The notes under the pieces were generated by a model. That model was not told the origin of the DNA, searched no databases, and was given only the letters and a program-made list of their open reading frames with translations. Shown here piece by piece: positions 48,471-53,510 of a stretch of DNA of 64,000 bases; within the stretch, counting starts at the first letter, position 1; every line of letters starts with the position of its first letter. A program made the translations under genes and the position numbers. Source of the DNA: a phage. Location: assembly GCA_019338205.1 (NCBI GenBank), contig GCA_019338205.1_4761.1; one strand, written 5' to 3'.

Positions 48471-48629
48471 ATGAAATTCATCGGTAAAACTTTTATGTTC
48501 GTAGCTGGTACTCTGTTTACTGCAACTCTGTTAGCTGGTGGCTTAGATATCTTTACTGCCTTTGAAACTTTCGGGTATACTGTAGCATCGGGTGCTCTCT
48601 TCGGATTGGGTTTAGCGATTAGCAAATAA
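48471..48629 (+). CDS. small hydrophobic protein (52 aa)
   Basis: MKFIGKTFMFVAGTLFTATLLAGG...; behind type II cassette; below track cutoff. Confidence 0.45.
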   Translation: MKFIGKTFMFVAGTLFTATLLAGGLDIFTAFETFGYTVASGALFGLGLAISK

Positions 48630-48638
48630 GGTGATAAT

Positions 48639-48842
48639 ATGGAATTGGATATGGTTAAAGCAAAATTTATGGGTAAGGATAAGAGCGGTAAAACATTTGT
48701 TATTAATAGAACATTGTTTAGCTCTGACCTTAAGTGGGTAACACAACAATTTGCGGAAGTCAACGAGGCAGTTGTGACATGCTTCGTTGATGGTAAAAAA
48801 GTTTTTGAAATTGATCGTCGTGGGGTGTCTAATGATCGCTAA
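48639..48842 (+). CDS. hypothetical protein (67 aa)
   Basis: RBS AAGGTGA. Confidence 0.45.
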   Translation: MELDMVKAKFMGKDKSGKTFVINRTLFSSDLKWVTQQFAEVNEAVVTCFVDGKKVFEIDRRGVSNDR

Positions 48843-49029
48843 ACTGTTTAGCAATACTTTGTTTCTGATTGCATTTGTTTTCTTTCTGTGTCTGATCATC
48901 GGTGTGATTGCAGTCGGTAGTTATTCCGGTATTACAATAGATGATTTTTGTATGTTGGTTTTCTTTTCAAGTGTTCCTACACTCCTGATCGCTGTATGTG
49001 GTGCTTTTAGATGGATCTGTGATCTATGA
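48832..49029 (+). CDS. small membrane protein (65 aa)
   Basis: Internal ATG of track ORF 48787-49029; two TM helices; overlaps upstream stop. Confidence 0.4.
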   Translation: MIAKLFSNTLFLIAFVFFLCLIIGVIAVGSYSGITIDDFCMLVFFSSVPTLLIAVCGAFRWICDL

Positions 49030-49136
49030 CTGAACAGGAACGAATGATGTTGATAGGTGGACCTGAGTTCACTAAATTTGATGCAATTCTTATTGCGTTT
49101 GGTTTTCTTATGATCTGTTGTATGGTGGCGCTATGA
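49026..49136 (+). CDS. mini membrane protein (36 aa)
   Basis: ATGA overlaps at both ends suggest translational coupling; hydrophobic C-terminus. Confidence 0.3.
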   Translation: MTEQERMMLIGGPEFTKFDAILIAFGFLMICCMVAL

Positions 49137-49357
49137 GTAGTATAAAATATTTCGCTTTCTTGTGCTTTATGATGTTCTTTACATTCTTTGCATGTGTTTT
49201 CTTTACCTGGCTTGCTCATGTTGATAATGCAACCGGACCGTTTTACTTCTTCTGTGTATTGTCTGTGTTGACTGGTGCTCTTGTTACGTGGATGATTCGA
49301 GATTGTTACGGAATGTATAAGTTTGAAAAGACTCGACCGAAATGGGGCAAACGATGA
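49133..49357 (+). CDS. small membrane protein (74 aa)
   Basis: In-frame ATG of track ORF 49118-49357; two TM helices. Confidence 0.4.
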   Translation: MSSIKYFAFLCFMMFFTFFACVFFTWLAHVDNATGPFYFFCVLSVLTGALVTWMIRDCYGMYKFEKTRPKWGKR

Positions 49358-49536
49358 AATTATTTGCGTGGCTAATTATTTTAAATGTAATTGTTAAGAC
49401 CTTTCTCGCTGGTCTGATGATGGCGCATAGCACGAAACCAGAAGAAGCATTAACGTATTTTGTTGCTTATGTGCTGGGATTCTTGCTTACTGCGTGGATG
49501 TGTGATGAATATCGAAGAATTGAGGTAAAACCATGA
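49354..49536 (+). CDS. small membrane protein (60 aa)
   Basis: ATGA overlap with upstream gene; hydrophobic. Confidence 0.4.
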   Translation: MKLFAWLIILNVIVKTFLAGLMMAHSTKPEEALTYFVAYVLGFLLTAWMCDEYRRIEVKP

Positions 49537-49751
49537 AAATGACTTTTTATATCTTAGCAAGTATCATGCTTGTGATCTCTTCTGCATTATTTGCATTTCT
49601 TACCGTTTGGGGGATCTGTACTGATGCGAAGCCGTGGGATATCGTAGAAAATACGGTTATGTTTATTATTAGTGTCATGTGTCTTTTTGATGCATTTAAC
49701 TCTATCAAGGAAGAAGACCAAAAACGTCGCGATAGAAAGCGATATAAATAA
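49533..49751 (+). CDS. small membrane protein (72 aa)
   Basis: RBS GAGGT; two TM helices and basic C-terminal tail. Confidence 0.45.
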   Translation: MKMTFYILASIMLVISSALFAFLTVWGICTDAKPWDIVENTVMFIISVMCLFDAFNSIKEEDQKRRDRKRYK

Positions 49752-49899
49752 TAGTGAACTAAAGACAGCGCGGTTAGAATGATTTGGACGTCACCTAGCC
49801 GCATTTATTGCAGCGTATGGGCGATCCGGTACGCTAAAGCATTCACTTGCTAGGCCGCTAGCAGGTTGGAGACAAGGAAGATTCGCTACCTTCCCTATA

Positions 49900-49926
49900 A
49901 GCCACTCTTCGGAGTGGCTTTTTTAT
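49900..49926 (+). terminator. intrinsic terminator (PeSL stem-loop)
   Basis: agccactc-ttcg-gagtggct plus TTTTTT. Confidence 0.65.
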
Positions 49927-49952
49927 TGCCTAAAATTTTTTTAAAAAAGTTG

Positions 49953-49981
49953 TTGACACCAGATCCGGCCTATAGCATAAT
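49953..49981 (+). promoter_or_regulatory. early promoter cassette type I
   Basis: A-rich upstream tract, TTGACA-17-CATAAT, conserved leader, ATG 50028. Confidence 0.6.
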
Positions 49982-50027
49982 ACACCCATCGAAACGAAAC
50001 ACACTTTCTTAAACGGAGAATCAAATT

Positions 50028-50213
50028 ATGGCACGTCGCATCACTAAAGCACTGAAAGCAGTAAGCAAAGAAAACGTAGTAGCTATTCTGGTAATCTGGG
50101 GTTATAACGAAGAATCCGCTAAACAGAAAGTTGAAGCAGGGTTTGAACTGGCAGTAAAAGCAATGCCGAATGATGACTCTGTAGGACTGGCAAACTATAT
50201 TGCATATTTCTGA
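50028..50213 (+). CDS. early hypothetical protein (61 aa)
   Basis: Behind type I cassette. Confidence 0.5.
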   Translation: MARRITKALKAVSKENVVAILVIWGYNEESAKQKVEAGFELAVKAMPNDDSVGLANYIAYF

Positions 50214-50221
50214 TAAAAGTG

Positions 50222-51899: not shown

Positions 51900-51920
51900 A
51901 TTTAATGTGAGGATTATATT

Positions 51921-52241
51921 ATGAGCAAACTGTTTGAAACTCCGCGTGAAATTCTGATTGACAAACTGAAAGAACGTGGTTTTAAAATTAAAGATGCAAC
52001 CAAATACAGCCGAATTGATGAAATTAAGTTGCATTCTCTTGATGAACTGGTAGAATATGTTGCGGCGGTTGCTGATCCGCAGTTTGATGTGATTGTAGGT
52101 GATGTTGAATATCTCGATAATGTATATTCATTCTTCACTTATGGTAAAATTGTGTCTGTGAAAATTTCATTCTGTGAAAATGTGGAGGTGCTTGCTAGTG
52201 AACCAGAAAAACCAACTGACAACGGTCCTTCGGCAGCGTAA
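51921..52241 (+). CDS. early hypothetical protein (106 aa)
   Basis: RBS GTGAGGA. Confidence 0.45.
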   Translation: MSKLFETPREILIDKLKERGFKIKDATKYSRIDEIKLHSLDELVEYVAAVADPQFDVIVGDVEYLDNVYSFFTYGKIVSVKISFCENVEVLASEPEKPTDNGPSAA

Positions 52242-52512
52242 CAAGGAAGACCGTCTGATTTATGCGCTGGCGGTTATCCTTGAAAAAGAATTACCGGATC
52301 TTGAGGTAGTTTTTACTGACCGACCAGTAGGCCAACGTTACGGCGGATATGATAGCCTAGTTTATCCATCATATAGCCTTGAAATGTGGGTGGAAGATTT
52401 TAAAAACTTGGCTGATACATCTAAACCGCTTTATTTGTGGGATGTTGAGTATAATTGCGATCCTAACTGGCCTGGCATTAATGTTTATGCGTCTATGACT
52501 TTAAAGGTGTGA
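52180..52512 (+). CDS. early hypothetical protein (about 105-110 aa, start uncertain)
   Basis: Overlaps previous gene; candidate starts ATG 52180 or GTG 52198 (RBS GGAGG). Confidence 0.35.
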   Translation: MWRCLLVNQKNQLTTVLRQRNKEDRLIYALAVILEKELPDLEVVFTDRPVGQRYGGYDSLVYPSYSLEMWVEDFKNLADTSKPLYLWDVEYNCDPNWPGINVYASMTLKV

Positions 52513-52514
52513 TA

Positions 52515-52673
52515 ATGGTTGAACAAATGTTAACTTCAATGGTAATGGCTTTCTGTATGGTTGTTGTTATGATTGCAATGATCCCTAAAGAGAGAATGAA
52601 TCTTCTTGTAGCTGTCTGTATGGGCGTTGTTTGTGGATGGTTTGGGATCGCGCTAGAAGAAGCTCTGCGTTGA
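52515..52673 (+). CDS. small membrane protein (52 aa)
   Basis: Hydrophobic; below track cutoff. Confidence 0.35.
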   Translation: MVEQMLTSMVMAFCMVVVMIAMIPKERMNLLVAVCMGVVCGWFGIALEEALR

Positions 52674-52681
52674 TTAACAAA

Positions 52682-52706
52682 GCGGGTAGTACATTCCACT
52701 ACCCGC
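52682..52706 (+). other. 9 bp perfect stem-loop (gcgggtagt-acattcc-actacccgc)
   Basis: Between small-gene clusters; weak T-run. Confidence 0.35.
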
Positions 52707-52734
52707 ACTAATTTATCTCGCTGGAGGGCTTTCT

Positions 52735-52923
52735 ATGGAGTTTTGTCTATGGTTGCTTATAGTATGCTTTGTAATGGGTTTATGCTTCTATACTGGCGTA
52801 TTCTGTTTTGTCGCCTGGATAGACGGCGGATTCTCTAATATCATTTTGCTTGCCGGATCAATTGCCTCGTTTCTGTTGATATGGCTTTTTTCTTATTTGT
52901 TTGGTGAATGGGATTTATTATGA
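52735..52923 (+). CDS. small membrane protein (62 aa)
   Basis: RBS GGAGGG; two TM helices. Confidence 0.45.
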   Translation: MEFCLWLLIVCFVMGLCFYTGVFCFVAWIDGGFSNIILLAGSIASFLLIWLFSYLFGEWDLL

Positions 52924-53099
52924 ACAAATATATGTTTTGGGCGACCCTTGCCTATGTTGTGATTGCGGTAGTATGGGGATTCTGTGTTATTGTCGCTTCT
53001 CTGATCTGGTGGGAATCACTTGGTGCGGGTTGTCTGATTAGCGGCGCATCATGTCTTATCACTGGCGTGATTGTTGGTTTTCTTGTGTCGGAGGATTGA
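52920..53099 (+). CDS. small membrane protein (59 aa)
   Basis: ATGA overlap with upstream gene. Confidence 0.4.
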   Translation: MNKYMFWATLAYVVIAVVWGFCVIVASLIWWESLGAGCLISGASCLITGVIVGFLVSED

Positions 53100-53101
53100 C
53101 A

Positions 53102-53317
53102 ATGGTTTTCTTCGGTCTTATTATAATGGTGCTTAATGTCATTTGTGGCGTTGCTATGTTAGCTATGGCCTTTACTGTTCCTATGTCTGTTGACAGCGCC
53201 GCGTCAGTAGGTGTGTTGGGAATTGTAAACCTGTTTACTGCCATAGCATGTTGGATCACCGGACGCGATGAGGTAATGTATTACTTTTATAAACGTAAAC
53301 AGAGAAAAGGAAAATAA
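53102..53317 (+). CDS. small membrane protein (71 aa)
   Basis: RBS GGAGGA then ATG 53102; track start 53051 is upstream in frame. Confidence 0.4.
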   Translation: MVFFGLIIMVLNVICGVAMLAMAFTVPMSVDSAASVGVLGIVNLFTAIACWITGRDEVMYYFYKRKQRKGK

Positions 53318-53318
53318 T

Positions 53319-53510
53319 ATGAGATTTGCATTTGGTTTTACCGTGATGTTGATTATTGCTCTGAGTATGTGTACCGGAATGCTTGTATTTGGTCTTGCAA
53401 ACGGGTTTAGCATTTATAATAATCAGTGGGTTGATTGGGGAATGGTTGTCGTTAATGCGATCCTGATTGGTGCTAATACAAGAACTCTATGCAGGATCGC
53501 CGGAATCTAA
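53319..53510 (+). CDS. small membrane protein (63 aa)
   Basis: Two TM helices. Confidence 0.4.
   Translation: MRFAFGFTVMLIIALSMCTGMLVFGLANGFSIYNNQWVDWGMVVVNAILIGANTRTLCRIAGI

Follow-up and report, generated by a model that had tools for sequence, protein, structure and literature searches.

The stretch of phage DNA analysed here (the window; 64,000 nucleotides (nt), contig GCA_019338205.1_4761.1 of GenBank assembly GCA_019338205.1) carries a 5-kb block, positions 48471-53510, that encodes 15 small proteins of 36-74 amino acids (aa) in three runs (run 1, 48471-49751; run 2, 51321-51899; run 3, 52515-53510). Fourteen of the proteins are hydrophobic and one, Dmd, is soluble. The window belongs to Krischvirus, the RB49/Phi1/JSE/GEC-3S group of T4-type coliphages: megablast with positions 48000-54000 returned 59 phage records at 90-99% identity, and all those whose taxonomy was read were Krischvirus. 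The Krischvirus records run in the opposite orientation, their minus strand corresponding to the plus strand of the window. An earlier note, made from the letters of this DNA alone, had described about 15 proteins of 36-74 aa, almost all with one or two transmembrane (TM) helices, at these coordinates, and this was borne out with Dmd as the exception. We are in very little doubt that all 14 hydrophobic open reading frames (ORFs) are real genes with membrane-located products.

The genes are listed below with start sites as annotated in relatives and with the ORF numbers of the RB49 orthologues; TM helices are predicted throughout.

A1a, 48471-48629, plus strand: 52 aa, two weakly hydrophobic segments rich in Gly, Ala and Thr; ORF124c; phrog_16462; first gene of the dmd operon
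dmd, 48639-48842, plus strand: 67 aa, soluble, within run 1; antitoxin against RnlA/LsoA
A1b, 48832-49029, plus strand: 65 aa, hairpin of two TM helices; ORF122c; overlaps the end of dmd by 11 nt
A1c, 49026-49136, plus strand: 36 aa, acidic N-terminus and a single C-terminal TM helix; ORF121c; ATGA overlap on both sides
A1d, 49133-49357, plus strand: 74 aa, hairpin of two TM helices with a basic C-terminal tail; ORF120c
A1e, 49354-49536, plus strand: 60 aa, hairpin of two TM helices; ORF119c
A1f, 49533-49751, plus strand: 72 aa, hairpin of two TM helices with a long charged C-terminal tail; ORF118c; one allele 65% identical
A2a, 51321-51503, plus strand: 60 aa, hairpin of two TM helices; ORF112c
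A2b, 51505-51702, plus strand: 65 aa, hairpin of two TM helices; ORF111c
A2c, 51702-51899, plus strand: 65 aa, hairpin of two TM helices; ORF110c; TGATG overlap with A2b
A3a, 52515-52673, plus strand: 52 aa, hairpin of two TM helices with a basic central loop; ORF107c
A3b, 52735-52923, plus strand: 62 aa, hairpin of two TM helices with no Lys or Arg; ORF106c
A3c, 52920-53099, plus strand: 59 aa, hairpin of two TM helices; ORF105c; ATGA overlap with A3b
A3d, 53102-53317, plus strand: 71 aa, hairpin of two TM helices with the invariant basic tail EVMYYFYKRKQRKGK; ORF104c
A3e, 53319-53510, plus strand: 63 aa; ORF103c; ends 28 nt before the endolysin gene

By Kyte-Doolittle windows two hydrophobic segments were found in 12 of the 14 proteins and one in A1c and A3e, the latter with a second, weaker segment beside the strong one. 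The TMHMM table published for the RB49 orthologues (ORF103c-124c; Nolan et al. 2006, Additional file 2) lists 13 of the 14, 12 of them with two helices, and lacks A3c (ORF105c). The two methods agree on the membrane character of the products. Dmd has no hydrophobic segment, matches phrog_2102 (E=3.8e-30) and is 45% identical to T4 Dmd. As it lies inside run 1, the first of the arrays proposed by the earlier note does consist of mini membrane genes, though not purely so. The start/stop joins that the note had pointed out are present, with five ATGA overlaps and one TGATG overlap, along with the 11-nt overlap of dmd and A1b and four gaps of 1-2 nt. A Shine-Dalgarno (SD)-like sequence precedes the start codon of at least 12 of the 14 ORFs, and that of A1a is strong (AGGAG).

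The ORFs are annotated in 59 Krischvirus records. In ten GenBank relatives they are intact nearly throughout, with a ratio of nonsynonymous to synonymous divergence (pN/pS) of 0.04-0.73. More divergent relatives were obtained from metagenome and Logan assemblies via the A3d family, as contigs of 18-175 kb with the same gene order. In these the synonymous divergence (pS) reached 0.3-0.6 and pN/pS was 0.05-0.76 (the range for A1a is 0.04-0.76), and the ORFs were full length at 65-98% aa identity with the exceptions of A2b, missing in one relative, and A2c. Among 15 relatives the lengths stayed within 4 aa and the count of hydrophobic segments was the same in nearly every cell of the matrix; run 3 was unreadable in one of them (L009), whose record ends before it. 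The conservation in relatives on which the earlier note had made its claim depend was thus found, and the ORFs are under purifying selection. The ORFs might instead be untranslated by-products of a T-rich, G-rich sequence that have spread through annotation. They are short and without homologues outside the genus, the plus strand is T- and G-rich here, and our literature search found no transcriptome or proteome of an RB49-type phage and no published expression data for these ORFs. However, the ORFs keep their frame, their length and their number of helices even at pS up to 0.6, pN/pS is below 1, SD sequences are present, there is no space for alternative genes, and the antisense ORFs are not conserved features of any annotation. 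Hence we regard the 14 ORFs as genes and not as chance products, and the by-product explanation as scarcely credible.

The runs are stable as wholes in every relative covered, and the changes fall inside them. A2b carries the same 1-nt deletion, a frameshift, in W115 (L003) and JK32 (L006), and is missing in JSE, SSG23 and one metagenomic relative (L016). In JSE (L004, 6048-6242) and SSG23 (L007, 5531-5731) a single ORF of about 65 aa stands in place of A2b plus A2c. JSE and three metagenomic relatives have a second A2c allele of the same length, again with two TM helices and only 35-37% identical, and the replacement ORF of SSG23 gave no tblastn match to A2c. A1b falls into two allele classes that are about 72-77% identical, and alleles of A1b, A1f and A3a at 65-81% identity are combined mosaically among the relatives; A1d is 89-99% identical in 15 relatives. 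The interleaved soluble proteins (ORF125, ORF117, the LPD25 protein, ORF109 and ORF108) are mostly 97-100% identical, down to 90% in one relative (L017). As the membrane proteins are at 65-90% identity in the same genomes in which the soluble ones are at 97-100%, they diverge faster. Variable columns make up 37% within the hydrophobic segments versus 39% outside.

Further, we searched for homologues of the 14 proteins. PHROGs places them in 14 separate families of unknown function, residues 1-36 of A1c matching the 36-position profile of phrog_15282. Pfam (E up to 1) and NCBIfam (E up to 0.1) returned sub-threshold noise only for all 14, and tblastn of all 14 against 50,697 phage records gave matches in the 59 Krischvirus records only. 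When A3d, A1a and A1d were searched against a database of 5.8e9 proteins, only close relatives were found (at least 79% identity across the aligned part), and where a long contig was on record for a match it measured 166-176 kb, as large as a Krischvirus genome. A1d gave Krischvirus-type matches only, and A1a gave three protein clusters only, two of them with a long contig on record (175-176 kb, phage-sized). An exhaustive profile search with the A3d alignment in 1.84e9 representatives returned its own family only. The AlphaFold2 model of A3d is a plain helical hairpin with helices at 2-25 and 30-69 (pLDDT 78.7), and Foldseek of this model against BFVD and PDB gave nothing significant save its own Phi1 orthologue. 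Judged by sequence, all 14 are genus-restricted orphans in the databases searched. Reciprocal tblastn with T4 Imm, Sp, Ac, TifA, AdfA, 52.1, ndd.x, trna.4 and e.2-e.4 gave nothing, Dmd being the exception. A split polytopic protein was rejected, as the concatenated runs matched no family in Pfam, and so was tandem duplication, as all-vs-all Smith-Waterman with shuffles reached a top z-score of 4.0 among 91 pairs and gave no convincing paralogy.

GenBank has carried the ORFs from the RB49 record AY343333 onward, they have been annotated as hypothetical since 2003, and W115 labels 11 of the 14 as 'putative membrane protein'. In the literature we found no text on their clustering or function beyond the supplementary TMHMM table of Nolan et al. 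(2006). The finding is a correct re-observation of annotated hypothetical genes, and nothing in it shows a new kind of system.

The earlier note had suggested a density above that of an ordinary T4-like early region. By annotation, 14 of the 22 genes in the stretch are predicted membrane genes versus about 21 of about 275 genome-wide (hypergeometric P of about 3e-13, a naive and post hoc value). Among the RB49 novel ORFs with a TMHMM helix, 13 of 20 lie in these 5 kb (3% of the genome), or 14 of 21 if ORF105c is counted. We kept to annotation-based counts and dropped a greedy ORF census, which was noisy and picks up antisense ORFs. When the same hydrophobicity criterion was applied to 121 small annotated T4 genes, 21 were hydrophobic, and the densest T4 stretch held 8 in 3.3 kb (motA.1, 52.1, ac, ndd.2a and ndd.3-6; 26-51 aa). 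Krischvirus with 14 proteins and 856 aa thus exceeds T4 with 8 proteins and 314 aa about 1.75-fold (roughly twice) by gene count and nearly threefold by residues. In the syntenic interval T4 has four such genes (trna.4, e.2, e.3, e.4), Aeromonas phage AS-gz three or four and Acinetobacter phage AM101 two. The suggestion therefore holds in degree, whereas the tight packing and the start/stop overlaps are normal in T4-type early regions. As T4 has an analogous cluster (52.1-ac-ndd.2a-ndd.6), the arrangement is not foreign to T4-like phages.

The block is flanked by genes 1, 57A and 57B (46498-47914) and by the endolysin gene (53539-53928), 3' of which follow vs.8, ORF100, vs.6 and nrdC.11. T4 has the identical frame, 1-57A-57B ... 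e ... vs.8-vs.7-vs.6, and its interval contains ipI, trna.2-4, a tRNA cluster, rnaC/D, e.8-e.2 and nudE. As the frame is that of T4 and the filling differs, we count the block among the 'hyperplastic regions' described for T4-type genomes (Arbiol et al. 2010, PMC2839356). No tRNA genes were found in the window between 42000 and 64000; T4 and Acinetobacter AM101 have tRNA clusters after 57B. Gene 57B (47450-47914, plus strand) encodes the anti-CBASS phosphodiesterase/nuclease Acb1 (PF23474 in the gene tables of relatives) and lies 560 nt upstream of run 1. In Krischvirus dmd is relocated to the neighbourhood of 57B; in T4 it lies between genes 41 and 61. Two proven counter-defence genes, acb1/57B and dmd, thus stand on either side of the point where the block of membrane proteins begins. 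At the other end, an endolysin of the M15 L-alanyl-D-glutamate peptidase type occupies the slot of the unrelated T4 lysozyme gene e, an in-place non-orthologous replacement, and TCTAAATA, with one mismatch to the T4 late-promoter consensus, stands 26 nt before its start codon.

To describe the transcription units we list the elements that delimit them, along with a hairpin inside run 3.

Promoter of the run-1 unit, 48411-48439, plus strand: predicted early sigma70 promoter of the PeSL type (early promoter/stem-loop repeat); TTGACA-17-TAAGAT, 10 of 12 matches
Terminator of the run-1 unit, 49899-49926, plus strand: intrinsic terminator with a 9-bp stem followed by a T-run; a terminator in the GEC-3S annotation
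Promoter of the long unit, 50915-50943, plus strand: predicted early PeSL-type promoter; TTGACA-17-CATAAT, 11 of 12 matches; a promoter in the GEC-3S annotation
Hairpin, 52682-52706, no strand assigned: perfect and G+C-rich, GCGGGTAGT...ACTACCCGC, in the 61-nt gap between A3a and A3b, the only sizeable gap in run 3

Near-consensus sigma70 promoters were seen at 47958, 48411, 49953, 50222 and 50915, and intrinsic terminators at 47921, 49899 and 55038. The promoters belong to repeat families of 33-61 nt, and the GEC-3S record has its annotated promoters and terminators at the matching places. PeSL copies near the block are at 47947, 48411, 49942, 50222 and 50904, the last sharing a 61-nt repeat family with those at 47947 and 49942. 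The promoter at 48411 coincides with one annotated in GEC-3S. It is overlapped by a G/C hairpin (48424-48447), an arrangement also seen in the PeSLs of Arbiol et al. (2010), who proved promoter and terminator activity of the PeSL experimentally for other RB49 cassettes. Run 1 is bounded by the promoter/hairpin at 48411 on one side and the terminator at 49899 with the PeSL at 49942 on the other, and the predicted unit reads promoter 48411, A1a, dmd, A1b to A1f, terminator 49899. Runs 2 and 3 lie downstream of the PeSL at 50904. After the promoter at 50915 the next terminator is at 55038-55062, and the predicted unit reads promoter 50915, ORF113, A2a to A2c, ORF109, ORF108, A3a, the hairpin, A3b to A3e, endolysin, vs.8, ORF100, vs.6, terminator 55038. 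The coordinates of the three arrays of the earlier note thus stand, but the separateness of runs 2 and 3 does not, as they share one predicted transcript with soluble proteins and the endolysin. A late promoter of the T4 type (TATAAATA) was not found upstream of any run, and early expression from host-type sigma70 PeSL promoters is predicted. The hairpin at 52682-52706 is followed by a T-run on the minus strand and by none on the plus strand, and could be a site of transcript processing or attenuation, or an antisense terminator.

Two sets of soluble genes share the long unit with runs 2 and 3. ORF113 (50986-51312, plus strand), its first gene, encodes the LPD25 domain ('large polyvalent protein-associated domain 25'; Pfam E=3e-14) and is 97-98% identical across relatives. 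ORF109 and ORF108 (51921-52512, plus strand), between runs 2 and 3, encode soluble proteins of 106 and 104 aa with a mutual overlap of 44 nt; they are 90-100% conserved across relatives and matched nothing in Pfam, NCBIfam or the functional PHROGs.

The positive-inside rule governs the orientation of membrane proteins. Most of the two-helix members have few Lys and Arg residues, which are placed at the N- and C-termini, and a central loop of 8-18 residues that is acidic and wholly or almost free of Lys and Arg. Taken with the rule, this charge distribution indicates for most of them a helical hairpin with both ends in the cytoplasm (N-in/C-in) and a very short, acidic periplasmic loop. A3a, with its basic loop and acidic ends, probably has the inverted orientation. 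In A3b there is neither Lys nor Arg, and just four residues are acidic, which is unusual since orientation normally depends on positive charges. Basic cytoplasmic tails are predicted for A1d, A1f and A3d, that of A3d being invariant. As there is little soluble mass, any specific function would have to depend mostly on contacts between helices within the membrane or on the short tails.

Which function this might be can be approached from the context. The reading we favour, to which we give a probability of roughly 40%, is a functional class: inner-membrane proteins that act independently of one another in phage-host or phage-phage conflict. The proteins would be made early from the two sigma70 transcripts, the start/stop overlaps keeping translation tightly packed, and each of the 14 would act alone by intramembrane helix-helix binding to a protein of the host or of a rival phage. 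One option would be exclusion as by Imm or HK97 gp15, with the genome-delivery pore of the rival being blocked; another would be the neutralising of abortive-infection effectors that act at the membrane. That each acts alone is suggested by the unrelated sequences, their independent evolution and exchange, and the almost complete lack of soluble mass. Likewise, fast divergence, allele swaps and tolerated single losses fit independent accessory factors better than an obligate complex. The conflict part of the reading comes from the position of run 1 in the dmd operon and near acb1: co-location with proven counter-defence genes was found, with dmd inside run 1 and acb1/57B 560 nt upstream. Downstream of dmd in T4 come tifA (anti-ToxN), sp (spackle, superinfection exclusion at the level of the envelope) and adfA (anti-DarTG), and the T4 dmd region has been called an 'anti-TA island' (TA, toxin-antitoxin) whose neighbours are attractive candidates (Srikant et al., PMC9391042). 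RB49 has no annotated imm, sp, ac, ndd-cluster, tifA or adfA gene. A homologue of Imm or Sp went undetected in about 97% of a Krischvirus genome, where tblastn with T4 Imm gave nothing at E up to 10, and none of the 14 matched Pfam Imm_superinfect at E up to 1.

Several points weigh against this reading. None of the 14 has detectable similarity to a protein of known function, so that the proposed role rests on context and on the small number of T4 envelope proteins that have been characterised, and both the early timing and the membrane insertion are predictions. All 14 are kept in nearly every member of the genus, more like a genus-core set than like anti-defence cargo that varies by presence and absence. 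The faster divergence could reflect low sequence constraint on TM helices, and the ATGA coupling could mean stoichiometric co-assembly. That Imm and Sp seem to be absent counts for little, since BLAST with T4 rI also misses the rI of RB49. The earlier note had named superinfection exclusion, membrane-targeted host takeover and inhibition of membrane-bound defence effectors as candidate roles; these remain candidates, favoured by context only, and no single specific role, exclusion for example, would we place above unlikely. Further, we speculate that the 14 hairpins might form a battery of intramembrane 'blockers', each tuned to a different membrane target, such as the genome-delivery pores or tape-measure proteins of rivals or the pore-forming abortive-infection effectors of the host, in a genus-specific immunity/counter-immunity locus that would replace the Imm/Sp system which these phages seem to lack. 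We think such a battery quite unlikely.

The same data can be read in terms of general host takeover, in which membrane-perturbing or inhibitory peptides would shut down membrane functions of the host early (transport, respiration, division, proton-motive force) and would not be aimed at defence systems or rival phages. The predicted early expression, high hydrophobicity and small soluble surface would suit this, and the retention of all 14 across the genus fits a routine function in infection. Nolan et al. (2006) found regions with novel ORFs under-represented in plasmid libraries, some perhaps being deleterious to the host; this poor cloning would agree with takeover, although it was not reported specifically for the present region. 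Against it, fourteen unrelated peptides are many for a generic effect, alleles are replaced and a frameshift in A2b is tolerated, and T4 achieves takeover without homologues. We hold takeover to be unlikely. The coupled hairpins of one run might also form a membrane complex of fixed stoichiometry, as a channel, a scaffold or a split polytopic protein. The ATGA/TGATG coupling and 1-2-nt gaps within runs, the uniform unit size and architecture, and the keeping together of whole runs across the genus all point that way. However, the concatenated runs match no Pfam family, and neighbouring alleles mix freely: loss or frameshift of A2b leaves A2a and A2c in place, and in some relatives an allele with 35% identity takes the place of A2c. 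Start/stop overlaps are moreover usual in early regions of the T4 type, and in this block they also link soluble genes that are unrelated (ORF109/108). We therefore give an assembly little credence.

Run 3 (A3a-A3e) raises the question of lysis control, with proteins like holins, pinholins or antiholins that would time or aid the release of the endolysin. The run adjoins the endolysin gene (28 nt) and is predicted to be co-transcribed with it. A3d resembles a class II holin, with 71 aa, two TM helices and an invariant basic C-terminal tail, and Pfam gave sub-threshold hits of A3d to Phage_holin_3_5 (E=0.029; 15 bits versus a cut-off of 27) and of A1d to Phage_holin_3_6 (E=0.05); the near-consensus late promoter before the endolysin start adds to these. 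Yet the T4-type lysis set is already present, with the t holin, the rI antiholin and the pseT.2/pseT.3 spanins in RB49 and rI (PF24205) in relatives, which weakens the case for a lysis cassette. The holin hits are far below gathering scores, and NCBIfam and Foldseek gave nothing. There is no TATAAATA late promoter before run 3. The same M15 endolysin occurs in RB43 and in a Proteus Bragavirus without adjacent two-helix genes, and as it sits in the ancestral slot of gene e the adjacency may be positional and not functional. All this makes lysis control improbable in our view, and independent action in conflict remains the reading we favour for the 14 proteins.

Between run 1 and run 2 we observed a further element. 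The 276-nt gap after A1f holds an unannotated stretch of about 170 nt (49752-49926, plus strand) that is 97-100% identical and single-copy in Krischvirus records, 59 of which cover at least 80% of the query, and that was found in no other phage. It is almost invariant in the divergent metagenomic relatives, though the adjoining A1f has a pS of 0.6. The predicted RNA fold has five hairpins, the last being the terminator (-63.6 kcal/mol, z = -4.5), and the alignment contains one compensatory change from G-C to A-U along with several one-sided changes. A conserved and perfect T4 late-promoter octamer, TATAAATA, lies directly upstream at 49743-49750. The stretch matched no Rfam family and has no similarity to T4 rnaC or rnaD. 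We suggest it as a candidate small structured RNA or element of the 3' untranslated region, and it may merit separate follow-up more than the membrane ORFs.

The small membrane proteins of phages belong to the least understood products of their genomes, and each of the few whose role has been worked out (Imm, Sp, RI, HK97 gp15) controls entry, exclusion or lysis. In a genus of therapeutic phages that is widely used, about two thirds of the orphan genes with predicted membrane products lie in one 5-kb block that is bounded by PeSLs and probably dispensable. As they are concentrated in one block by known counter-defence genes, they offer a compact and easily deleted target for the study of such proteins. 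If they are true exclusion or anti-defence factors, they would matter for how phage cocktails are designed and host range is predicted; otherwise the block is an ordinary T4-type hyperplastic region.

Among known systems, the T4 dmd-tifA-sp-adfA island is alike in having dmd downstream of an early promoter and small accessory genes after it. It differs in that the genes after dmd in Krischvirus encode two-helix hairpins, none of them similar to TifA, Sp or AdfA. The small membrane protein Imm of T4 excludes rivals by binding to their tape-measure protein at the membrane, as has been proposed for HK97 gp15 (bioRxiv 10.64898/2026.03.06.709160), and is an example of how so small a protein can work. 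Both are small early inner-membrane proteins, and Imm, with 83 aa, has two hydrophobic segments by the criterion used here; the 14 share with it the small size, the predicted early sigma70 expression and the predicted inner-membrane location. Imm differs in being modelled with four helices and a periplasmic N-terminus, and no exclusion phenotype is known for any Krischvirus ORF. Class II holins and pinholins such as phage 21 S68 are similar in size, in the two TM helices, in the basic tail (A3d, A1d and A1f; a generic trait) and, for run 3, in the proximity of the endolysin. In contrast to these, there is no family-level match here, expression is predicted to be early, t, rI and spanins are already present, and the linkage is not kept in other genera.

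The cassettes of PeSLs and ORFans described in RB49 and phi1 by Arbiol et al. (2010) are from the same genomes, and there too early promoter/stem-loop repeats bracket orphan ORFs in hyperplastic regions. That work treats PeSLs as shuffling devices and does not mention membrane proteins, and the Krischvirus block has long multi-gene units between its PeSLs and not single ORFans. The T4 cluster motA.1/52.1/ac/ndd.2a-ndd.6, around gene 52 and between 52 and denB, is likewise a packed run of early, tiny hydrophobic ORFs in a plastic region, encoding predicted membrane and periplasmic proteins of mostly unknown function. Its proteins are smaller and mostly single-helix, it has another genome position and no sequence similarity, and RB49 is without it. 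In the syntenic interval itself T4 has trna.4, a 61-aa hairpin of two TM helices, and e.2-e.4, of which e.3 and e.4 have two TM helices, and Aeromonas AS-gz and Acinetobacter AM101 also have small two-helix ORFs after 57B. These intervals differ from the present one in holding two to four such genes without sequence similarity, the T4 e.2-e.4 products being 102-130 aa; T4 has internal-protein genes there too, and the intervals of T4 and Acinetobacter AM101 contain tRNA genes, unlike that of the window. Small hairpin proteins thus recur in the hyperplastic region between 57B and the endolysin gene across T4-type genera.

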